A stretch of DNA of 9,440 nt, from IMG/VR virus record IMGVR_UViG_3300023038_000043, positions 1 through 9,440 of that record, one strand, 5' to 3'. A program made the position numbers and the translations under genes. This DNA is from a virus (Duplodnaviria; Heunggongvirae; Uroviricota; Caudoviricetes). Below are positions 880-9,440 of this stretch, in pieces (position 1 is the stretch's first letter; each line of letters starts with the position of its first letter). The notes under the pieces are model-generated. The model saw nothing but the letters and a program-made list of their open reading frames with translations. It was not told the origin of the DNA and made no database searches.

Positions 880-1261
880 GGCATTCACCCCGTCGTCGCG
901 CTGTACGCAGTTCTTCACATTCCAGTAATAAAAAACGCCGCTGACCGTTCAGGTCGCGTATTCGCCGGATCCGGTACTCCTGACCGTAATAAACCACCTC
1001 ATGATCTGCCGTGATGTCGTGACGGAAACGGATCGTAAAATAATGTGTAACGATATTTTCTGTCTGCACTGAGCCCTGATAAGCGGCAGCGCCTGGCTGG
1101 GCCACCTTTGCCCAGACATCAAACGACTCCAGATACGTCGGCTCCGTATCAAAATCAGCGGTGGGTTCATCCACACGGAGGCGGATCTTTATCCGGCGAT
1201 TCAGTTCTCCGGGATCCGGTAAAAGGTAAGTGGCACTGGTCTGACTTTGCCTGATTTTCAT
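845..1261 (-). CDS. Head closure / head-tail adaptor protein (SPP1 gp16-like family)
   Basis: ATG at 1261..1259 overlaps the connector stop in an ATGA arrangement (tcat at 1258-1261). The C-terminal half (VWAKV...IRFRHDIT...VVYYGQEYRIRRIRD...RFLLLECEE) resembles head-closure family proteins as I recall them. The N-terminal extension in the ORF track was rejected. Confidence 0.65.
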   Translation of the reverse strand: MKIRQSQTSATYLLPDPGELNRRIKIRLRVDEPTADFDTEPTYLESFDVWAKVAQPGAAAYQGSVQTENIVTHYFTIRFRHDITADHEVVYYGQEYRIRRIRDLNGQRRFLLLECEELRTARRRGECHESDSIFTRRL

Positions 1262-1581
1262 AGAGGCACAATCCTGTAAGGACCAGCGAGCCATCTGAAA
1301 CTCACTGGCGTTTCAAGTTTCTCAACATTGGTACTCGCTGAACGATTTTCATAAAAATGACTGACCAGCATCAGCATGGCCAGACGAATGTCATCAGTCA
1401 GATGTATCCCGTCAGGATCATCTTCCGGAATCGTCTCATCCGGTGCATACAACTTCCTGTTCAGATAGGACTCTGTTCTTTTCTGTACCGCCTGTGCCAG
1501 CAGTTTCAGAAGATCGCCGTCACTATACAACCCATCATCGAGCCGGAGATGAGACTTAATTTCCTCTTCTTTCAGGAGCAT
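1258..1581 (-). CDS. gp6-like head-tail connector protein
   Basis: Internal ATG at 1581..1579 with AGGAGG 5-6 nt upstream (rc of 1586-1591) gives MLLKEEEIKSHLRLDDGLYSDGDLLKLLAQAV..., 107 aa, typical of the Phage_connect_1 family. It lies immediately downstream of the capsid gene. The longer track ORF overlaps the capsid 3' end and lacks an RBS. Confidence 0.75.
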   Translation of the reverse strand: MLLKEEEIKSHLRLDDGLYSDGDLLKLLAQAVQKRTESYLNRKLYAPDETIPEDDPDGIHLTDDIRLAMLMLVSHFYENRSASTNVEKLETPVSFRWLAGPYRIVPL

Positions 1582-1591
1582 ATTTCCTCCT

Positions 1592-1613
1592 GTGCCCGCG
1601 TAATGGCGGGCAC
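1592..1613 (-). promoter_or_regulatory. Intercistronic hairpin between capsid stop and connector SD (perfect 8-bp stem, 6-nt loop)
   Basis: gtgcccgc (1592-1599) / gtaatg loop / gcgggcac (1606-1613) are exact reverse complements. On the mRNA the hairpin is preceded by a U-run and directly abuts the AGGAGG of the next gene. A competing repeat pair cgcgtaatg (1598-1606) / cattacgcg (1623-1631) overlaps the capsid stop codon. Confidence 0.5.
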
Positions 1614-1624
1614 AAAAAACCGCA

Positions 1625-2851
1625 TTACGCGGCAGCTTTCTTGCTGGTTGCAGCCCCAATTTTCATCAGCTTAATCGCCTGAGAATCCACCAGCATACCG
1701 CCGGTTCGCTTGGTGGTATAAAAACCCACAAACGGTTTGTTGGTGTACGGATCGCGCAGGATACGGGTACCGATGCGATCAACGATGGTATAGCCACGTT
1801 TGAAGTTACCAAACGCAATGGCTTTTGCATCGGCGGCAATATCCGGCATCTGCTCATTCTCAACGATGCCATACCCTGCCAGAGAAGAAGGCTGACCCAG
1901 CTCAATACCCGGACGCCACAGATAATTTCCGTCGTTATCCTTCAGCAGACGAATGGCAAACAGGCTGCTGTTGTTCATCATGAACTTCGCGCCGCTGCGG
2001 TGCGCCTTACGCAGGGTGTAAATCAGTTTAATGATCGCATCAGCGGTCACGCCAGAAGCCGCACCGGAAGCGATATGCTGAAGTTTGCCAAACTTACGGG
2101 TTTTGTCATCTTCATCGGTGGACTCATAAGCCAGAAAACCTTTTGGTTTTTTGCTGCCGTCGCCACTGGTAAAGGCAATTTCTTCCTGTTCGGCAAATTC
2201 CAGCGCCAGCTCACTGTTGATCCAGTCTTCCACATTGAAGAAAGCGTCATCGAGCATTTTCTGGGTGGCCTGCGGGTTGCCGTAGATTTCCCCCATAAAG
2301 GGTTCAATCAGCCCCAGTTTTGAGGTGGCGGTTTCCGGACGCGTATCCGTTTCCCCCACCCATCCGGACTTAGTGCCGCCCAGATTCACCAGTTTTTTAT
2401 AATCCGAGCCACCGAGGGTGATCACAGTGGCTTCCTGGCGCATCACCACCTCATCTTTCAGCAGCGTCAGGATGGTACGATCCAGTTCTTCCGGAATGGC
2501 ATAACCACCATCTTCATCATTACCTACCTGAAGCGCCTTACGTTCAAGTTCACGCAGACCGTCTTCACGCCCCTTGCGCATAAATCCGATAAACGCTTCT
2601 TTGTGTTCACCGGCAACTTTATTTTTCGTGCCGCCTGCCGGACGCTTAACTTCAGCCAGCTCAGCCTCAAGATCGCTTTTCAGGTTTTCCAGCTCGCTGA
2701 TTTGCCCGTTCAGGCTTTCCACCTGTTCGGCCAGCTTGCTTTTTTCCTGTTCGATCGCGTCAATGCGCTTGTCGTTTTTTGCCTTAAAATCGTCAAACTT
2801 CTGCTGCAAATCCTGCGCGACCTGTTCAACGTCTTTAATATCAACAGCCAT
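1625..2851 (-). CDS. Major capsid protein, HK97 family, with N-terminal coiled-coil delta/scaffold-like domain
   Basis: 408 aa; ATG at 2851..2849 with AGGAG 7 nt upstream. The N-terminus is a heptad-like charged coil (EQVAQDLQQKFDDFKAKNDKRIDAIEQEKSKLAEQVESL...) followed by a long region typical of HK97-fold capsid proteins. It directly follows the prohead protease. Confidence 0.93.
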   Translation of the reverse strand: MAVDIKDVEQVAQDLQQKFDDFKAKNDKRIDAIEQEKSKLAEQVESLNGQISELENLKSDLEAELAEVKRPAGGTKNKVAGEHKEAFIGFMRKGREDGLRELERKALQVGNDEDGGYAIPEELDRTILTLLKDEVVMRQEATVITLGGSDYKKLVNLGGTKSGWVGETDTRPETATSKLGLIEPFMGEIYGNPQATQKMLDDAFFNVEDWINSELALEFAEQEEIAFTSGDGSKKPKGFLAYESTDEDDKTRKFGKLQHIASGAASGVTADAIIKLIYTLRKAHRSGAKFMMNNSSLFAIRLLKDNDGNYLWRPGIELGQPSSLAGYGIVENEQMPDIAADAKAIAFGNFKRGYTIVDRIGTRILRDPYTNKPFVGFYTTKRTGGMLVDSQAIKLMKIGAATSKKAAA

Positions 2852-2864
2852 TATTTACTCCTGG

Positions 2865-3515
2865 TTAAAATTTAAGATTTTTCAGTGCATTCAGTGCGAC
2901 ATCCACATCCTCAGCATCACGCAGGGATAAAGCGCCATATCCCCCGGCCATGAATGCTTTGGCCTGGGTTCGCGAGAGTCCAACATCGCGCAGGACTCGC
3001 TCAATAATTTTCTGATCGGGGATCTCCCCACGCGCCAGCGCATTTTTCACATCGCTGATGCGTGCTTCATCATTGGAAGGAAACGTCACCAGACTGACCT
3101 CCCACAGGTCGATCTCTTTCAGCAGGAATACCCCTTTTTCCCGGTCGTACTCCCAGTCTTTCAGGATGTAGCCAATAGAAAGGCCGGTTAAAGAACCGGC
3201 CTTCATATGGGCATGTGCACGTTTTGCCAGGGGATCATCATCAACGAGTAATCGCCCCCTGACATAAAGCCCGACATCATCTTCTTTCATTTCGGTGTAC
3301 ACACCGATGGGCTCATCCATACGGTGCTGCCAGAGCAACGCAGGCAGCGCCTTTTTTTCGCTCCATTTCTGGAGTGTTGTGGTAAAGGCTCCGGGGATCA
3401 CCACATCATCGTGGCTGTCCTTAACACCAAAAACAGAACCGTAACCTTCAAATTCCCCGGAATCACTGACGGATTTCAGGTTCAGCGGTATATCAAGACG
3501 CTGTTTTATCTGCAT
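2865..3515 (-). CDS. Prohead protease, HK97 family (216 aa from ATG at 3515; longer alternative from ATG at 3545)
   Basis: The ATG at 3515..3513 is preceded by AAGGAGA (rc of 3523-3531), whereas the 3545 ATG has no SD. MQIKQRLDIPLNLKSVSDSGEFEGYGSVFGVKDSHDDVV... is typical of HK97 gp4-type proteases. Sits between portal and capsid. Confidence 0.88.
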   Translation of the reverse strand: MQIKQRLDIPLNLKSVSDSGEFEGYGSVFGVKDSHDDVVIPGAFTTTLQKWSEKKALPALLWQHRMDEPIGVYTEMKEDDVGLYVRGRLLVDDDPLAKRAHAHMKAGSLTGLSIGYILKDWEYDREKGVFLLKEIDLWEVSLVTFPSNDEARISDVKNALARGEIPDQKIIERVLRDVGLSRTQAKAFMAGGYGALSLRDAEDVDVALNALKNLKF

Positions 3516-4734
3516 CTCCACTCTCCTTTTTCTTACCGTTGTCATCGCCAGCAGAGGGACTGGTGGTCATGTTCATCGGTGTCAGATACACATCACCGCC
3601 TGGTCGGGGATTCATATCCTCCAGATCACGGCAGTCATTAGGGGAATAAATCCCCCAGTTGATCCCCGTGGCATACGCTTCAAAGCGGGATTTCATGTCG
3701 CCACGCAACAATGCTCCGGCATTAAATTTGGCGTAAAACCTCCCCTGTTTGCTCTCCCTGACCAGCCCTGTATTGATCCGTTGTTCAATACGGGTCAGAT
3801 ACGGCACAAGGGAATAGTTGATAAATCCGAGCCCCAGCTCTTCAATATTGTTGAAGGTGGCGCGATCGGTGTTCTGCACCATGTGCAATGGCACACGGAA
3901 CAGACGACAGATTTCTTCCAGCTGAAACTTGCGGGTTTCCAGGAACTGGCTGTCCTCGGCGTTCAGCGCCATCGACTTCCAGTCCAGCCCCATTTCCAGA
4001 ATCATCGGGCGGTGAGCATTGCCAAGCCCCGTGTGACGCTCCTCAAAATCTTTCTTCAGACGCTCGTAAGCATCCGGCGTGAGCTTTTGTTCCGTACGCA
4101 ACACACCGGATGTCACCGCACCATTACCAAACAACCTGGCACCGTGCTCCTCGGTTGCCGCTGCCAGTGAAATGGCCTCACGCGCATACGCAATGGGATT
4201 CAGCCCCACCAGTCCGTCCAGCGTCAGAGTGCGCACATGCCAGATTTTATCCTGGGTCAGCACATCCACGGAACCATCCGGAAACGTCACCTGATAAACC
4301 GGCTGCCACTGGCTGTTCAGCTTCGGTTCCACACAGCCCGGATCTATCGGAAGAAGCTCCACCACTTCCCCCAGTGCCTTTACCTTGTAGGCGTAAAAAT
4401 TCCCCCGCAGACACAGGCAGACAATGACCAGTTCCCAGAATTCCTGCGGCGTCATGTAGCCATTGGGTTTTGCCGAAATCAGCTTATGCAGCCGTTCATC
4501 CACCGCCCGTGTTTTAAGGGTGCCGCTGATTTTGTAGAGACTGCAGGGCAGCATACCAACAGACTCAGCCAGCACCCTGACGCAGGAATAGACCGCCGTC
4601 AGCCGCATGGCCCGCTGGCTGCTGATCCGCTTTCCGGTATAGGTGTCGTATGACAGCCCGATAGCCTCCGCCAGCTCTGCTGGCGTGGTCACCGGTGCGT
4701 CACTTTTTCGTTGAAATAACCCCGAAAAGAACAC
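3493..4734 (-). CDS. Portal protein, HK97 family (apparent GTG start)
   Basis: 413-aa ORF with GGAGG 6 nt upstream of the first (GTG) codon at 4734..4732. Size, position between terminase and protease, and acidic C-terminal tail are typical of portals. Overlaps the protease gene 5' end by at least 23 nt. Confidence 0.88.
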   Translation of the reverse strand: MFFSGLFQRKSDAPVTTPAELAEAIGLSYDTYTGKRISSQRAMRLTAVYSCVRVLAESVGMLPCSLYKISGTLKTRAVDERLHKLISAKPNGYMTPQEFWELVIVCLCLRGNFYAYKVKALGEVVELLPIDPGCVEPKLNSQWQPVYQVTFPDGSVDVLTQDKIWHVRTLTLDGLVGLNPIAYAREAISLAAATEEHGARLFGNGAVTSGVLRTEQKLTPDAYERLKKDFEERHTGLGNAHRPMILEMGLDWKSMALNAEDSQFLETRKFQLEEICRLFRVPLHMVQNTDRATFNNIEELGLGFINYSLVPYLTRIEQRINTGLVRESKQGRFYAKFNAGALLRGDMKSRFEAYATGINWGIYSPNDCRDLEDMNPRPGGDVYLTPMNMTTSPSAGDDNGKKKESGDADKTAS

Positions 4735-4916
4735 TATTTACCTCCGCCGACAGACTGCCGTGTACGGTCGAGATATCGTGCAACCAGCCACGACCAGAAC
4801 AGGCACAGCGCCCCGGCAACAACAAAACCCGCCGGGGGATAAATCAGCCAGGCGCCATACGCCAGCAAAAGCACACCCAGCACGCCCACCAGAGGCGTGA
4901 GAATTATCAGAAACAT
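4734..4916 (-). CDS. Small predicted two-TM membrane protein (60 aa) between terminase large subunit and portal
   Basis: ATG at 4916..4914 with GAGG 6 nt upstream; [49 protein letters not shown]... is strongly hydrophobic with host-like CTG-rich codons. Its stop TAG (4736..4734) overlaps the portal start codon. No family recognised. Confidence 0.5.
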
Positions 4917-4927
4917 AATGTCCTCGG

Positions 4928-6685
4928 TTAAAGCGAGCGGATACCAACACTAATCAGGTGTTCAGACAGATCCGGCTCCGGTTCACCGCCATTGACCAGC
5001 ATCCGGCTCATTGCTGTAAACATCGCAACAGGGCCGTCGATTTTTGCTTCAGGCGTGGATTTGTTCGGGAAGATATTGTCGTTTTTGTCCGGTTTTACCG
5101 TAACGTTAGACATCATCCAGTTCATGACCGGGTGATTGCTGTGGTGAAAACGCCCGGCATAGACCAGTGATTCCGTTTCCTTCATGGCCTCTGACAGATT
5201 GCGGACCGTCTGCGGAACTTCCACCAGCGGTATCCCTTCTTCAGCCAGAGCCAGACTGAACTGCATTGCACTCCACGGGTCAAATCCCAGCTCCCTCAGG
5301 TTTTCACCACCAATCCATTCCAGTAAGTCACTTTTTATCTGAGCATGATCGATAACATCACCATCCGTCAGGATGAGCTTATCCATCTCCGCCCATTTCC
5401 GGTAAAGTTCTGCCTGCTGCCGCGAGCACCGCTCCAGCCGTCCTTCCGGGAGCCAGAATTTAAAATCAGCATGAACATGTCCGTTATCGGTTCGCCAGAG
5501 TTTTGCCGCCGCACAGATATCAATCTTATGAGCAAGGTCGACGCCGACCCACATGGGATACGTTTTCAGCTCATGTCGTGGGGCAATATATTCGCATTTC
5601 TCCCACTTAATCATGTCCATCCAGGCAGACTCTGCTGTTACCCACACATTCATGTGTTTCGTGAAAAAATTCACCCGCGCTGAAACCTGTTCCTTCGCTT
5701 TTTTCGCCAGACGACGCAGATCATCCCAGCGTTTACAGATGCCCAGGCCCGGATTCGCTTTCTGCCAGACCGTTTCATCAAACGGATCATCTCCCTCATC
5801 GAGCGTGTAAATAATCGCAAAGTAGGAGTCGTCTTTTACCGCGCCCTCCACGTCACTGTTATAGCCTCGCAATACCTTGATGGCGTAATCGCGTTGCTCG
5901 TAACAAATCCCTTCCTTGTTAAAGCCCGCCGTGGTGATACCAAATAACAGGGACTGCAGACGGGCACCGGTTGCCGTTTCCAGAACGTCCCACACGTCGC
6001 GGGTTTTATGTGCATGCAGCTCATCAATAATGGCGCAGTGGATGTTCAGACCGTCCAGGTTGTTTGCATCCGAGGAAAGCGGTTCAAATTTTGATGCACT
6101 CTGCTCCTGGTAAATCGCCAGCTTGTTGAAATCAAACAACCGCCCGAGTGTCGACCGGGCTTTTCTGACCATATTTTTGGCGTCTTCAAACACGATTCTG
6201 GCCTGGTCACGCGTGGTTGCGGCTGAATACACCTCAGCCCCGCCTTCACCATCTGCCCCCGTCATATACAGACCGATACCCGATGACAGGGTTGATTTTG
6301 CGTTTTTACGGGCGACTTCGTTGTACGCCGTCCGGAACCGGCGCACCATCACCGGGCGCCCGCTGCCATCGCTGCGCATGACAACTTCCCCGGTCTCTTC
6401 ATTCACCAGCGGAATGACAAAACCAAAAATATTAATGAGGATAAAAACATGCCAGTCCATCAACTCAATGGGCTGACCTGCCAGCGCCCCTTTCACATGG
6501 GGCACAAATTTGTAGAAATTCAGGATGTGCTGCGCACGGGGTTCACTGAAATAAATCCCCCGCTCTTCGCCGTACTTCAGATCATCAAGAAAACGCTGGC
6601 AGGCCAGACGGACAAATTCGCCAGCGACAATTTCTCCTGCAACAACACGTTCGGCGTAGCGGATCCCGTCAGCCACTTTTGCCAT
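4928..6685 (-). CDS. Terminase large subunit (Terminase_1-like ATPase/nuclease)
   Basis: 585 aa; ATG at 6685..6683 shares a nucleotide with the small-subunit TGA (TGATG coupling). Contains a Walker-B-like hydrophobic-DE motif ([14 protein letters not shown]) and overall terminase-like layout. Lies between the small subunit and portal. Confidence 0.93.
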
Positions 6686-7167
6686 CAGTCTCTCGCTTTT
6701 AAAAGCTCTGCCAGTGGATCAACATCATCCGGTCCGGCGGTATTTACTTTCGCCCGGCTTGCCGGTGACATACCAAACTCTGCAAGCATCGCCCGGATCC
6801 GCTTCCAGGCATCCGCCTTCATCGCCGCAGCCGGATGTGCCTTGATCATCACATCGCCATTCTGCGTTTCCGTGCGGTAGGTATAACCCTCAACATCGAG
6901 TGTTTCGCAGTGATGCCGGTATTCGATGTAGGCTTCCACCAGTAACTCGAGTGCACGCGCATCAAGCTGAGAAATGATCCCTTCCGCATTCAGCTCTTCC
7001 GCCATTCGCCTGAACCAGTACTTCCCCTGCGCCCCTAAATGTTGCGGAATTTTAGGGAGACCTTTTTCATCCTTTTTAGCGGCTTTTTTGGGGTCTTTAA
7101 CGGGGCGCTTTGAGGGGTTGCCTCGTATCAAATGCAGGCGTGGCGGGGTTTTCGGGGGTCCTGACAT
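6685..7167 (-). CDS. Terminase small subunit (P27-family-like)
   Basis: 160 aa; ATG at 7167..7165. Basic Lys/Pro-rich N-terminus (PPKTPPRLHLIRGNPSKRPVKDPKKAAKKDEKGLP) followed by a helical region, typical of P27-type small subunits. Immediately upstream of and coupled to the large subunit. Confidence 0.85.
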   Translation of the reverse strand: MSGPPKTPPRLHLIRGNPSKRPVKDPKKAAKKDEKGLPKIPQHLGAQGKYWFRRMAEELNAEGIISQLDARALELLVEAYIEYRHHCETLDVEGYTYRTETQNGDVMIKAHPAAAMKADAWKRIRAMLAEFGMSPASRAKVNTAGPDDVDPLAELLKARD

Positions 7168-7313: not shown

Positions 7314-7664
7314 TCACCTGATTCGTTCGCGCGCTGTTTTCGCTTTGTGGCAGGGCCAGCACAGACTCTGCAGGTTGCTGTCTGCGTCTGTTCCGCCATG
7401 TGCTTTCGGGATGATGTGGTCGACAGTTTTCGCCTCGCGCACCACACCGACACGCAGACACAACTGACACAGACCTTTATCGCGCTTCAGAATACGGGCA
7501 CGAATCACCGTCCATTTTGAGCCATAACCACGCTGGTGGCGGCTCAGTCCGCGCTGGTGCTGTGCCCAGCCTTCACCACGATGTTTATCGCAGTAGCCAG
7601 AACTGTCTGTCGTTGTGCCTGCGCAGCCTCGCTTACGGCATGCGCGGGGGATCCGTGATGGCAT
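7314..7664 (-). CDS. HNH endonuclease (packaging-associated, HK97 gp74-like)
   Basis: 116 aa; Cys-x2-Cys...His...Asn...His...Cys-x2-Cys layout (CQLCLRVGVVREAKTVDHIIPKAHGGTDADSNLQSLCWPCHKAKT) plus an N-terminal Cys cluster. Located directly upstream of cos/terS. Confidence 0.9.
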   Translation of the reverse strand: MPSRIPRACRKRGCAGTTTDSSGYCDKHRGEGWAQHQRGLSRHQRGYGSKWTVIRARILKRDKGLCQLCLRVGVVREAKTVDHIIPKAHGGTDADSNLQSLCWPCHKAKTARERIR

Positions 7665-7691: not shown

Positions 7692-7723
7692 AACCATTCC
7701 TTAAAAACCTATACGGAGAACAA

Positions 7724-7936
7724 ATGAAAAATACTATTTCAAAAGGATTTCACCGGACAGGCGTTCTGTTGGCTATTTTGGTGTTGATGTTGAGCTTTGG
7801 TTTCTTTTTATTAACAGGTGCTGGTACAGGAATCTCGTTATTTGCTGTATTAGTTTCCCTGGTATGTGCCTTACTGACATACGGCATACTCAGACTGGTC
7901 GGATGGGCCGTTAACGGATTCATAAAAGATAACTAA
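7724..7936 (+). CDS. Small two-TM membrane protein (70 aa), opposite-strand AT-rich moron-like gene
   Basis: ATG at 7724 with GGAG 5 nt upstream; MKNTISKGFHRTGVLLAILVLMLSFGFFLLTGAGTGISLFAVLVSLVCALLTYGILRLVGWAVNGF... has two hydrophobic helices. About 40% GC by hand count versus visibly GC-richer flanks, and AT-rich codons (tta, att, ttt). Followed by a hairpin. Confidence 0.6.
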   Translation: MKNTISKGFHRTGVLLAILVLMLSFGFFLLTGAGTGISLFAVLVSLVCALLTYGILRLVGWAVNGFIKDN

Positions 7937-7945
7937 AACATTATC

Positions 7946-7970
7946 GCAGCCCCTCACACTGAAGGGCTGC
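7946..7970. terminator. Hairpin between convergent small genes (7-bp stem gcagccc/gggctgc, about 11-nt loop); weak bidirectional terminator candidate
   Basis: Perfect 7-bp GC-rich inverted repeat 10 nt after the plus-strand TAA (7934-7936) and 15 nt after the minus-strand 60-aa gene stop. Flanking U-tracts are poor on both strands, so termination is probably partial. Confidence 0.35.
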
Positions 7971-7984
7971 TGTAATGCTGGTGA

Positions 7985-8167
7985 TCAGTTCTGCGTACAC
8001 AGTCGAACGCCATCAATAAGCTGGCAGACCTGAAACGCGGTATCGAAAAGCTGGCGCGCCTTATCCAGACTGACGCATCCCACCAGGAAAAAAGGCACCA
8101 GTATCGCTACCAGTGCCCATTTCGCCGCCGTTCGCGGCATTCTGTGTGTCCAGTGTTTTCGGTTCAT
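7985..8167 (-). CDS. Small lipoprotein-like / membrane protein (60 aa) with candidate lipobox LVGC
   Basis: ATG at 8167..8165 lies 1 nt after the upstream 37-aa ORF stop (TGAcATG), preceded by a GGTGGTG SD-like sequence. Basic n-region, hydrophobic h-region (WALVAILVPFFLVG), then Cys, leaving a roughly 29-aa mature peptide with 3 Cys. An internal ATG at 8140 would give a canonical 22-aa signal peptide. Confidence 0.5.
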   Translation of the reverse strand: MNRKHWTHRMPRTAAKWALVAILVPFFLVGCVSLDKARQLFDTAFQVCQLIDGVRLCTQN

Positions 8168-8168
8168 G

Positions 8169-8282
8169 TCACCACCAACGCACAGCCAAAATCAGAACAG
8201 CAATCACCACAAGGCGAATTGCAAAGGCCGCAGCCCTTGTCAAATCAAGGCTCGCGGGAGTTTCCACTTCAATACCTTTCAT
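8169..8282 (-). CDS. 37-aa tail-anchored hydrophobic peptide (below the ORF-track length cutoff)
   Basis: Hand translation: ATG at 8282..8280, GAGG 9 nt upstream, product MKGIEVETPASLDLTRAAAFAIRLVVIAVLILAVRWW, stop TGA at 8171..8169, tightly coupled to the 60-aa gene. A TATAAA -10-like hexamer (rc of 8307-8312) lies upstream. Confidence 0.4.
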   Translation of the reverse strand: MKGIEVETPASLDLTRAAAFAIRLVVIAVLILAVRWW

Positions 8283-8373
8283 AATGGACAACCTCAAAAA
8301 GAATCTTTTATACTTTCCCACGAGGATTTTCTCCGTACTCACTACTCACAATTTCCTCTTTGACGTGAAAACT

Positions 8374-8416
8374 AAAAACCCCGGACTGTTCCAGCAGCCG
8401 GGGTTTTGTTTTTTAT
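8374..8416. terminator. Strong bidirectional rho-independent terminator
   Basis: AAAAA (8374-8378), stem CCCCGG(A)CTG (8379-8388), 6-nt loop, CAGCCGGGG (8395-8403), then TTTTGTTTTTTATTT (8404-8416). Stem is 9 bp with one bulge. U-tracts are available on both strands. Sits immediately after the 93-aa gene stop. Confidence 0.75.
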
Positions 8417-8694
8417 TTACTGCCTTGGGTGCGGCATCTGGCTATTTCATTCCTGGCTTTACTGTCACCGCGACAGATACAACGCACCGTGTCTCCGGTC
8501 AGCGTGGTAATGTAGGCTTCATCCGTTTTTTCCACCGAAATGCATGGTACATTTCCATCCCGGCAATACTCCACTTGGGCAGCAAGGTGAGTGTTGCGCG
8601 GGTAAAATTCCAGGCGATACATATTCCCCAGAACATGCACTTCTTCAACCTGACGCCCATCTTCCGTTACCGTGATTTTTTTCAGTGCGTACAT
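8413..8694 (-). CDS. Hypothetical Cys-containing protein (93 aa), no recognised family
   Basis: ATG at 8694..8692 with perfect GGAGG 5 nt upstream (rc of 8700-8704); MYALKKITVTEDGRQVEEVHVLGNMYRLEFYPRNTHLAAQVEYCRDGNVPCISVEKTD...CICRGD...; no TM segment or signal peptide. Bracketed by terminator-like hairpins on both sides. Confidence 0.55.
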   Translation of the reverse strand: MYALKKITVTEDGRQVEEVHVLGNMYRLEFYPRNTHLAAQVEYCRDGNVPCISVEKTDEAYITTLTGDTVRCICRGDSKARNEIARCRTQGSK

Positions 8695-8723
8695 ACATAC
8701 CTCCGTTCTTTCGTTTTTTGAGC

Positions 8724-8747
8724 AATAAAAAAGCCGCTCATGGCGGC
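8724..8747 (-). terminator. Candidate rho-independent terminator downstream of the endolysin gene (5-bp GC stem plus U-run on the minus-strand transcript)
   Basis: gccgc (8733-8737) / gcggc (8743-8747) stem with tcatg loop; on the minus-strand RNA the hairpin is followed by UUUUUUAUU (rc of 8724-8732). Short stem, so strength is uncertain. Confidence 0.35.
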
Positions 8748-8764
8748 CCTGTATGTTTTGCAAG

Positions 8765-9142
8765 CTATCGTTTCAATTGAAAATGTGGGCCGTCTTTAAG
8801 CGTCCGCCAGTCACCGCCCCATTCGATGGCAGTTCCAAGCTCTGCGGCAGCCTGCTTAAATGCCTGCGCGATTTTCTCGTACAGAGGCCAGTCCCATGAC
8901 ACCTGGCTGCCAACATAAGCCACAACATCCACAGCATCACCGGTCAGGTGGCGGCTGTTCATGGTCTGGCTTTTCCCTTCCGCGACCAGCTGTTTCTGGC
9001 GTTCTTTCGTGCGCAGCCCTTCCGTAATACCGAAATCAACCTCCGTCAGCTCCAGCGCACGGCGAACAACAGCAACCAGCTGTGGTTTGACGCCCTCCAG
9101 ATTTTTTTCACTGCGACGACTGAATCTGAATTTACCCGACAT
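8765..9142 (-). CDS. Endolysin, peptidase M15 family (VanY / L-alanyl-D-glutamate peptidase-like)
   Basis: ATG at 9142..9140 with GGAGG 5 nt upstream; the track ORF begins at an upstream GTG that overlaps the SD. Motifs SRHLTGDAVDV and WGGDW...DGPHFQL match the His/Asp/His zinc-binding signature of M15 peptidases as I recall it. Immediately downstream of a membrane protein. Confidence 0.82.
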   Translation of the reverse strand: MSGKFRFSRRSEKNLEGVKPQLVAVVRRALELTEVDFGITEGLRTKERQKQLVAEGKSQTMNSRHLTGDAVDVVAYVGSQVSWDWPLYEKIAQAFKQAAAELGTAIEWGGDWRTLKDGPHFQLKR

Positions 9143-9144
9143 GC

Positions 9145-9420
9145 TCACCTCCGGAATGAAAGGATTTTTGAAACGTTCCCGCGTGCACGTATCACCAGCA
9201 CGCAGAACAGCAGATTAAGCCCCACCGCCAGCCAGTTCGCCGCTAACGGGCGACCGCACAGATAGCTGAGTGGTGCAAAGGCATAAAGCAGCATCAGTAG
9301 CCAGGCCAGCCATGACATCAGCGGTTTATGTCTCGACTCACCACGACGATAAAAAAAGAGCGTCAGCACGATAACCGTGCTTAACACCACATTCAGTAAT
9401 CCGGGAAGGTTACTTAACAT
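9145..9420 (-). CDS. Putative holin (three predicted TM segments, 91 aa)
   Basis: ATG at 9420..9418 with GGAGG 5 nt upstream (rc of 9426-9430); the track ORF starts at an upstream GTG. Three hydrophobic stretches; the stop lies 2 nt from the endolysin ATG and overlaps its SD. Called by position and topology only. Confidence 0.55.
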   Translation of the reverse strand: MLSNLPGLLNVVLSTVIVLTLFFYRRGESRHKPLMSWLAWLLMLLYAFAPLSYLCGRPLAANWLAVGLNLLFCVLVIRARGNVSKILSFRR

Positions 9421-9440
9421 TACCGCCTCCACCCCGCAGA

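Follow-up and report, generated by a model that had tools for sequence, protein, structure and literature searches.

A YmfR-family membrane-protein gene as a portal-linked part of the head-gene module in a subset of HK97-like phages

The 9,440-nt stretch of viral DNA analysed here (the window) contains a short, strongly hydrophobic ORF between the genes for the terminase large subunit (TerL) and the portal protein. The original prediction regarded this ORF as unexpected and inserted, and proposed that it could be a moron or an assembly/exclusion factor. This raises two questions: whether the ORF is peculiar to this phage or a regular gene of the head region, and what its product might do. For the window, the outcome is mainly a correction: the small ORF is a standard YmfR-type gene, not an oddity.

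All three genes of the junction lie on the minus strand (Table 1), and the interval 4734-4927 consists of exactly the small ORF and its 11-nt spacer. The anticipated two-helix hydrophobic ORF with a GAGG ribosome-binding site (RBS) of its own was borne out, both by a GRAVY of 1.17 and by the GAGG at 4925-4922. Its stop codon does overlap the portal GTG, as had been proposed; the two share one base, the G of TAGTG. In addition, the portal Shine-Dalgarno (SD) sequence lies inside the small ORF, where the final codons GGA GGT (G58-G59) form it while encoding protein. Given the stop/start overlap and the embedded SD, translational coupling is the natural reading. In relatives, the portal gene starts with ATG where the window uses GTG, and the SD site is occupied by purine-rich GGAGG, GGGGG or GGTG; the GG[DEK] protein ending of enteric relatives follows the portal RBS. 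At the upstream edge, the TerL stop and spacer, TAAC[CT]GAGGnnATTATG, are kept in 80/80 close relatives, defined here as viral contigs with a portal at least 89% identical to that of the window.

Table 1. Coordinates of features at the terminase–portal junction (window positions).
Feature	Position	Strand	Basis or detail
TerL, 585 aa	4928..6685	-	Pfam TerL_ATPase E 1.9e-27, TerL_nuclease E 4.6e-52; TAA 4930-4928
Mosaic joint, last TerL codons	4945..4986	-	megablast match boundaries: relatives share TerL (>=4986) or small ORF + portal (<=4945)
Spacer, 11 nt (ccGAGGacatt)	4917..4927	-	small-ORF Shine-Dalgarno GAGG 4925-4922, 5 nt 5' of ATG
YmfR-family small membrane protein gene, 60 codons + TAG	4734..4916	-	ATG 4916-4914, TAG 4736-4734
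Predicted TM helix 1, residues 2-25	4842..4913	-	hydropathy, column profile, AF2; family-invariant G14, G21
Tight turn Y26-P-P-A-G30	4827..4841	-	column counts Y84, P60, P104, A94, G102 of 117
Predicted TM helix 2, residues 31-48	4773..4826	-	column profile + AF2; invariant G35
Variable basic C-terminal tail, residues 49-60, predicted cytoplasmic	4737..4772	-	most variable protein part
Portal Shine-Dalgarno GGAGG	4741..4745	-	6 nt 5' of GTG, within small ORF
Portal protein, 413 aa	3493..4734	-	Pfam Phage_portal E 1.2e-108; GTG 4734-4732

The small ORF is a genuine, catalogued gene of the YmfR / phrog_502 family, and as such already known. Residues 1-55 of the window protein align with positions 3-57 of the 58-position phrog_502 profile (E 5e-27), which is matched by 117/117 diverse family members, and a family HMM built here scores the window protein at 88.6 bits. 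RefSeq names homologues 'protein YmfR', after the gene of the E. coli K-12 cryptic prophage e14 (WP_000605606.1). Identity is 88-93% to enteric members (the K-12 YmfR, phiP27 and ST64B proteins) and 42-53% to those of phiKO2, Marinobacter AS1 and Azospirillum Cd; E. coli ECL27977 has an annotated protein of identical sequence, WP_032083405.1. The family, the 60-residue length, the TerL–portal slot and the one-base portal overlap are common to e14 YmfR, phiP27, ST64B Sb3, SfI, SfII, phiKO2 Gp3 and AS1 gp3, among which the phiP27 gene is labelled 'putative integral membrane protein' and those of SfI and SfII membrane protein. The window allele differs from phiP27, ST64B and e14 in being joined to another TerL type (36% identity). 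Otherwise it shows no difference of substance from known relatives and represents another allele.

An exhaustive profile search recovered 453 clusters (50% identity) at E<=1e-3, mostly of 45-76 aa; a scan of viral contigs with the family alignment returned close enteric copies only. No Pfam or NCBIfam family matched the window protein, and among 117 relatives the Pfam matches were scattered, weak and confined to unrelated membrane DUFs, in one or two members each. An RNA-element explanation was dropped, as Rfam found no match in the whole window. In the literature searched, mentions of ymfR are confined to lists of genes, a single transcriptome table and deletions of e14, and no functional study of any YmfR / phrog_502 family member was found.

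The original prediction named a non-coding or frame-disrupted interval in close relatives as evidence against a real gene. Instead, 80/80 close relatives carry an undisrupted ORF whose start, RBS and overlap match those of the window, and conservation acts at the protein level. These relatives carry 33 protein alleles, variable sites are distributed 21/11/29 over the three codon positions, and the NG86 dN/dS is 0.23-0.35 at dS ~0.7-1.5. Judged from these substitution patterns, the small ORF is under purifying selection.

Analysis of the predicted protein points to a compact membrane hairpin. Two hydrophobic stretches flank the sequence YPPAG, and AlphaFold2, run on the 117-sequence alignment, returns helices H2-25 and H27-57 with a mean pLDDT of 88. 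The best-conserved motif of the family is the turn, GAW[LM]IYPPAG, which is seen from Proteobacteria to Firmicutes and CPR. Three glycines are also conserved across the 117-member profile (G14 in 115, G21 in 116 and G35 in all 117), and the window protein carries every residue of the motif G14...G21-A-W-x-[IV]-Y-P-P-A-G...G35. Lysine and arginine average 0.21 per protein in the loop versus 1.63 at the N-terminus and 1.54 in the C-terminal tail, a positive-inside pattern. The predicted topology is thus N-in/C-in, with the YPPAG turn on the outer face of the inner membrane. Placed at matching depths (21+35 = 14+42 = 56), G14, G21, G35 and S42 would fit intramolecular helix packing. A YmfR-type protein of ~60 residues would therefore form a tightly packed hairpin of helices within the cytoplasmic membrane, with both termini facing the cytoplasm and the conserved W-x-x-Y-P-P-A-G turn at the outer face. 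Structural comparisons gave no further lead: Foldseek with the AlphaFold2 model retrieved no PDB entry and, from BFVD, no more than phage proteins that are uncharacterised (E>=0.07), the family profile matched PDB sequences only through chance transmembrane similarity (E>=0.08), and no homologue was found in solved virion or portal structures.

The position of the gene is conserved too, and the idea of an unexpected insertion is not supported. The portal gene lies directly downstream in 43/46 genomic loci, TerL mostly upstream, and of the three remaining loci two are truncated by the end of a contig. These loci span Enterobacterales, Aeromonadales, Burkholderiales, Alphaproteobacteria, Ruminococcaceae, Paenibacillus, Geobacter, Dehalococcoidia and Saccharibacteria. 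The one-base overlap with the portal start is present in 37/45 cases, and the small ORF begins within -7..+14 nt of the TerL stop. With an annotated family (YmfR, phrog_502; phiP27, ST64B, SfII, phiKO2) occupying this slot in different bacterial phyla, the small gene is a standard portal-linked part of the head-gene module, the rule in its lineage and not an insertion. In Yanshouia hominis, the gene still precedes the portal gene without an adjacent TerL. Locus L020, apparently without an upstream TerL, is a prophage from which the TerL region is missing, and locus L033 seems degraded.

Within this module, the gene follows the portal. Similarity among the small proteins correlates with portal similarity at a Spearman coefficient of 0.81, versus 0.43 with TerL similarity. 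TerL is less than 50% identical in 46/80 loci whose portal is at least 89% identical, the joint falling at window ~4945; there, nucleotide identity in the 46 loci rises from ~0.2-0.45 to 0.87-0.96. Phage Evi presents the reciprocal arrangement: its TerL is 99% identical and its portal 28%, and alongside lies a divergent 53-aa family member (29.9 bits versus <=8.5 for 200 shuffles), which is found in 80/80 Evi-type loci. Sequence comparison across these joints places the small gene in the portal/head module: it always stays with the portal, never with TerL. Such co-segregation could arise secondarily, because the small ORF contains the SD and start of the portal gene. Together, the identity, gene structure and portal linkage of the ORF can be stated with high confidence.

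The gene is, however, absent from HK97 itself. The family HMM found no member there (six-frame ORFs <=9.3 bits) and none in 80/80 HK97-type loci, where TerL is coupled directly to the portal gene. The HK97-type portal is 32% identical to that of the window, as similar as portals that do have the small gene. HK97-like heads can therefore assemble without the protein, and because HK97 lacks it, the gene is accessory, not universally required.

Taken in aggregate, these data suggest the following course of events. The small gene is a built-in late head operon member in a large share of HK97-like phages, and an SD of its own would start its translation directly after TerL. Ribosomes finishing at its TAG could restart on the overlapping portal start, whose SD lies in the final codons, and in evolution the gene moves with the portal and never with TerL. 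Its product would most likely be a late, membrane-resident accessory factor, working at the inner membrane with the portal or in prohead initiation. In this model, the conserved hairpin would provide the anchor, and the variable cytoplasmic tail would make the lineage-specific contact. As a whole, this explanation, which blends gene structure, portal linkage and a portal-assembly role, is given an even chance of being right. The portal-assembly function taken by itself, which is drawn by analogy, is tentative and on balance doubtful. Against it stands the pattern of conservation: the cytoplasmic tails that must touch the portal are unconserved, and the hairpin and its outward turn are the most conserved parts. 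HK97-like proheads are not known to form on a membrane, and the heads of this phage class are considered to assemble free in the cytoplasm.

The analogy is with phage T4, in which gp40, together with host YidC, is a membrane factor that helps assembly of the gp20 portal (PMC4493910). The likeness, for which no homology is claimed, is that of a factor which the phage encodes and which works at the inner membrane when portal and prohead are initiated (PMC4493910). The two cases differ in that HK97 lacks a YmfR-type gene. T4 gene 40 and gene 20, moreover, are not adjacent. One extension of the analogy would see in the family a morphogenetic factor so far overlooked, which in many HK97-like phages would link the forming portal ring or the start of the prohead to the cytoplasmic membrane, a minimal counterpart of gp40; we consider this unlikely. 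If it were true, it would place a membrane tie in a class of phages whose heads supposedly assemble in the cytoplasm. The family combines wide spread, fixed position, purifying selection, portal co-inheritance and absence from HK97, and what is at stake is membrane use in some HK97-like head assembly as against a separate late membrane function. Transertion, in which co-translational mRNA targeting would place portal synthesis at the membrane, was also considered and judged unlikely, the 60-aa protein being too short. Translation of a protein of this length ends before much of the chain leaves the ribosome.

A late membrane function apart from portal assembly could take the form of a holin-, pinholin- or antiholin-like or depolarising protein that tunes lysis timing or host physiology. 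Class II holins and pinholins of the S21 type are ~60-70 aa late proteins with two TM helices, N-in/C-in topology and a basic C-terminus. By prediction, the YmfR-type protein shares the length, both helices, the topology, the basic tail and expression in the late operon; its TM1 is rich in Gly and Ala, the membrane hairpin itself is the best-conserved surface, tandemly duplicated members (P0147, P0190 and P0232, with two HMM stretches each) suggest oligomeric hairpins, and absence from HK97 is as expected of an accessory function. The topology is compatible with a class II holin, but it is not holin-specific, and holin Pfam families matched 0/117 family members. The YmfR-type gene differs from these holin genes in lying away from the endolysin, and its product in its very short, conserved inter-helix turn. 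In the window, a full lysis cassette is present ~4 kb upstream (holin phrog_217 at 9432..9145, endolysin at 9148..8765), and a near-identical prophage already carries a class II holin, a lysozyme and a further lysis protein. A lysis-related role would also leave the fixed pre-portal position across phyla and the portal co-inheritance unexplained, and it appears quite unlikely. A moron-type or superinfection-exclusion protein, which would benefit the lysogen or block DNA entry of other phages as HK97 gp15 does, is a little less probable still. In PHROGs, phrog_502 belongs to the category 'moron, auxiliary metabolic gene and host takeover', where its annotation says no more than 'membrane protein'. 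The product is a small inner-membrane protein, like many exclusion proteins, the gene is missing from HK97, and the defective e14 of K-12 keeps ymfR intact between TerL and portal genes reduced to pseudogene fragments. The likeness to gp15, an inner-membrane superinfection-exclusion protein annotated as 'moron product', lies in its being a small membrane protein in an HK97-like late structural operon. The gp15 gene, however, has its own annotated terminator and is lineage-specific, whereas the YmfR family is without such signals and holds its position across phyla. Promoter-like matches numbered 4 versus 3.2+/-1.7 in shuffles, no excess over chance; the sole nearby match (4931..4903) has its -10 inside the small ORF and would fire within it, and no minus-strand terminator-like site was found between TerL and portal. 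The GC content of the small ORF (0.579) is ordinary beside the 0.50-0.58 of neighbouring genes, the ORF lies a few nucleotides from both neighbours and is coupled to the portal, the 80 close relatives show no presence/absence variation, and neither the window protein nor any of four diverse relatives matched a PADLOC profile at E<=0.1. In K-12, ymfR mRNA rises with the other e14 genes under SOS-type stress (log2FC 4.52), so that ymfR is co-induced with the prophage and not singled out (PMC10012262). Morons are lineage-specific, unlike this gene with its slot filled across phyla, and the moron proposal of the original prediction is not supported.

Two further readings were weighed. In one, the peptide is irrelevant and the small ORF is an upstream ORF or a spacer in translation, through which the rate of portal synthesis is set. 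The portal SD and start are embedded in its end, the overlap is conserved, few portal copies are needed, and HK97 couples the portal straight from TerL. A spacer, however, would not preserve a two-TM hairpin of constant length over 453 clusters. The motif GAW[LM]IYPPAG and the glycines G14/G21/G35 persist from phylum to phylum, against free variation at third positions and saturated dS; this reading has very little probability. The other equates the ORF with lambda gpW, the head-tail joining protein, and comes close to having no probability at all. Lambda W occupies the equivalent slot, as a small gene flanked by terminase A and portal B, where stops and starts overlap as well, and the label 'head-tail joining protein W' stands on several GenBank records, ON470580, ON470584, ON470603 and PQ793804. 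The sequences are nonetheless unrelated: BLASTP gives no alignment even at E<=100, and gpW, a soluble head completion or adaptor protein, is hydrophilic without a hydrophobic stretch, as against the strongly hydrophobic small-ORF product. At the sequence level, identity with gpW is thus refuted. The window also has an Ad1-type head-tail adaptor elsewhere, at 1258..1659. The database labels 'head-tail joining protein W' and 'moron' on the small ORF are unjustified.

Every gene in this part of the window is carried on the minus strand, and a small hydrophobic ORF (hereafter the small ORF) occupies the junction between the large terminase (TerL) and portal genes.

Genes of the lysis, packaging and head modules in the window
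Feature	Coordinates	Strand	Detail
Holin	9432..9145	-	
Endolysin	9148..8765	-	
HNH endonuclease	7664..7314	-	
P27-type small terminase (TerS)	7167..6685	-	
Large terminase (TerL)	6685..4928	-	stop TAA at 4930-4928
Small ORF	4916..4734	-	60 codons; ATG at 4916; end ...GGC GGA GGT AAA TAG
Portal	4734..3493	-	GTG at 4734-4732
S78 prohead protease	3545..2865	-	
HK97-fold major capsid protein (MCP)	2851..1625	-	
Head-tail adaptor, head-closure and neck genes	downstream of 1659	-	

The TerL stop is followed by the spacer ccGAGGacatt and the small-ORF ATG. At the other end, codons 58-59 encode the portal GGAGG (4745-4741), and the first base of the portal GTG is also part of the small-ORF TAG. The sequence thus agrees with the original prediction of a two-helix hydrophobic ORF with its own GAGG and a stop overlapping the portal start.

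Comparison with close relatives indicates that the small ORF is a real gene. Frame disruption or conservation at the nucleotide level only was looked for and was absent: in 80/80 viral contigs whose portals are 89-99% identical to that of the window, the 60-codon ORF is intact and keeps its ATG, its TAAC[CT]GAGG...ATTATG context and the one-base overlap. These contigs hold 33 protein and 44 nucleotide alleles, in which variable sites at codon positions 1/2/3 number 21/11/29 across the ORF and 11/5/18 in the hydrophobic core, and replacements are conservative (A/V/S/T/G and L/M/F). Against more distant enterobacterial copies, the Nei-Gojobori dN/dS is 0.23-0.35 at a dS of about 0.7-1.5. Occasional family copies are frameshifted or truncated: in Shigella flexneri (CP182557.1, 3078-3182) the C-terminal half alone is in frame, P0145 runs into the +1 frame, and the family proteins P0137 and P0146 are also affected. 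Such copies are to be expected in decaying prophages and contrast with the 80/80 intact ones in viral contigs.

The small ORF belongs to a family already annotated in databases, with no assigned function. Its product matches phrog_502 (E 5e-27), as do 117/117 diverse relatives, and an identical annotated protein is carried by E. coli ECL27977; scans of Pfam and NCBIfam returned no model for the family. The homologue in the E. coli K-12 prophage e14 is named "protein YmfR" in RefSeq and is flanked by TerL and portal pseudogene remnants, while those in phiP27, ST64B (Sb3), SfI/SfII and phiKO2 (Gp3) are labelled "membrane protein". The label "head-tail joining protein W" on GenBank ON470580, ON470584, ON470603 and PQ793804 was rejected as a positional mis-annotation, because lambda gpW, which occupies the same genomic slot, is hydrophilic and shows no similarity to the hydrophobic small-ORF product. 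In the e14 prophage of W3110 (3030-3212), ymfR is intact between a TerL and a portal that are both truncated; the survival of so short a gene (183 nt) may be accidental, or it may point to a role in the lysogen.

When 1.84 billion representative proteins were searched with the family profile, 453 clusters (formed at 50% identity) scored E<=1e-3; nearly all are 45-76 aa long. Scanning one genome per species from a motif seed that contained no portal sequence gave 46 loci. The hosts include Escherichia/Shigella, Edwardsiella, Mangrovibacter, Serratia, Citrobacter and Pseudaeromonas; Massilia and a Burkholderiaceae MAG; Reyranella, Shinella, Rhizobium and Sulfitobacter; Ruminococcaceae MAGs, Yanshouia and Paenibacillus popilliae; and Geobacter, a Dehalococcoidia MAG and a Saccharibacteria MAG. 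A PF04860-type portal directly follows the small ORF in 43/46 loci, usually with TerL directly before, and 2 of the 3 exceptions stop at a contig edge. The overlap with the portal start is exactly one base (TGATG, TAATG or TAGTG) in 37/45 cases, the window included; in most others the stop lies within a few bases of it. The small-ORF start ranges from 7 nt inside to 14 nt past the TerL stop. One 5.6-kb contig (JAEWTL010000102.1, "MAG: Bacillota bacterium") carries an enterobacterial-type TerL/YmfR/portal/protease/MCP block with proteins 86-89% identical to those of the window; as it is most likely mis-binned, it was left out of the Firmicutes evidence.

Comparison of relatives shows that the small ORF travels with the portal rather than TerL. 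Megablast matches at the junction fall into two sets, one covering TerL only (window >=4986) and one covering the small ORF and portal (window <=4945). Among 80 close portal relatives, 34 have the TerL type of the window, and TerL identity is below 50% in the other 46; along these 46 loci, nucleotide identity to the window climbs sharply near 4945, which lies five codons ahead of the TerL stop. Conversely, phage Evi and 80/80 Evi-type loci pair a TerL 99% identical to that of the window with a portal only 28% identical, and this divergent portal is accompanied by a different, 53-aa hydrophobic ORF, itself a divergent YmfR-family member (29.9 bits versus 8.5 for the best of 200 composition-matched shuffles). 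Across 32 loci, the small-protein score correlates with the portal score at a Spearman coefficient of 0.81, versus 0.43 with TerL. The portal is also the partner kept in Yanshouia hominis, where the small ORF precedes it with no adjacent TerL. The homology switch falls exactly at the last TerL codons (4930-4986), which look like a module-boundary sequence for head-module exchange by recombination. On the minus strand, the final TerL residues (…GIRSL*) and the RBS patch downstream of them (ATCCGCTCGCTTTAAC[CT]GAGG) are common to two TerL types only about 36% identical.

In HK97, TerL and portal overlap directly, and no YmfR-family member was found in its whole genome; 80/80 HK97-type loci likewise have the direct overlap and no family member. 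Yet identity to the portal of the window is alike for HK97 (32%), phiKO2 (35%) and Evi (28%); the small ORF is therefore a stable lineage-specific accessory and no universal requirement of HK97-like assembly.

The proposal that the ORF is an unexpected insertion, perhaps a moron, is unsupported, as an ORF before the portal is ordinary for this prophage class, its GC and GC3 fall in the range of neighbouring genes, and promoter-like and terminator-like matches in the region show no excess over shuffled controls. The one promoter-like match near the small ORF, a sigma-70-like sequence (TTAACC, 17 nt, GATAAT; 9/12) at 4903-4931 (-), spans the TerL stop and the first small-ORF codons. It would start transcription within the small ORF, and such matches occur in the region in chance number. 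Rfam and PADLOC searches gave no match. In K-12, ymfR mRNA rises 2^4.5-fold alongside other e14 genes during the antibiotic-induced SOS response (PMC10012262), which suits a prophage-induction gene. In Shigella phage SfII (KC736978.1/NC_021857.1, ~2362-2541), a depositor-annotated "terminator" overlaps the homologous membrane-protein gene; the equivalent place in the window has no terminator-like hairpin.

The small-ORF protein has a GRAVY of 1.17, with two hydrophobic segments joined by YPPAG, and AlphaFold2 (117-sequence alignment) predicts a helical hairpin with mean pLDDT 88. In the family consensus, ...G-x-x-G14-x-x-L-x-x-[YF]-G21-A-W-[LM]-[IV]-Y-P-P-A-G-[FY]-I-V-x-G35..., G14, G21 and G35 are essentially invariant. 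Mean Lys+Arg per protein is 1.63 for the N-terminus and 1.54 for the C-tail, against 0.21 for the turn; both ends are therefore predicted to be cytoplasmic, with the turn outside. In an antiparallel hairpin, G21 matches G35 in depth, as G14 does S42; helix-helix packing is the probable role of the invariant residues. Tandem duplications (P0147, 122 aa; P0190, 102 aa; P0232, 114 aa) contain two hairpin units, each matching the profile, which hints that hairpins act together in a functional unit of at least two.

Our literature search found no functional study of any YmfR-family member, and solved structures include no relative. By analogy, we favor a model in which the product acts at the membrane to aid initiation of the portal and prohead. 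An inner-membrane hairpin would be produced late, in step with the portal, and would help or localise initiation there; the conserved hairpin would be the anchor and the variable cytoplasmic tail a lineage-specific contact. In T4, which provides a precedent, portal assembly takes place on the inner membrane and involves phage gp40 and host YidC (PMC4493910); the small-ORF product may resemble gp40 as a phage factor acting there. Three real weaknesses of this model are that HK97 manages without the gene, that the conserved surface lies in the membrane, facing outward, away from a cytoplasmic portal, and that the embedded portal Shine-Dalgarno sequence and start could alone explain co-inheritance with the portal. 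With lower probability, the product may be a holin-like or other membrane-active late protein, or an exclusion protein. A pure spacer ORF is very unlikely, because an amino-acid motif is conserved across phyla. Family breadth, fixed portal coupling and behaviour at mosaic joints merit a short experimental follow-up.

Yanshouia hominis BX1 (2369-5113) is organised unlike the window, with a TerS-like gene (weak Terminase_4), a small hairpin ORF, a portal and a ClpP-type protease, while the 3 kb upstream contain no large terminase; it may be a satellite-like or rearranged element. The 1764-nt record OR844959.1 ("Enterococcus phage Efm 3-10"), attributed to an Enterococcus faecium phage, matches the E. 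coli-type small ORF/portal region of the window at 94% nucleotide identity and probably reflects contamination or a wrong label. The capsid-forming satellite cf-PICI EcCIEDL933 has in its packaging module a "hypothetical gene 1792", and mutating it severely lowers transfer (10.1101/2022.09.08.507074). In the interval from the lysis genes to HNH (7700-8765) lie two small uncharacterised ORFs, 7985..8167(-) (phrog_7528) and 8413..8763(-) (phrog_33497), the latter possibly where a spanin would lie; on the plus strand, an ORF of 202 aa (8113..8721) matches no PHROG. The HNH-to-TerS interval is arranged differently in the near-identical ECL27977 prophage.
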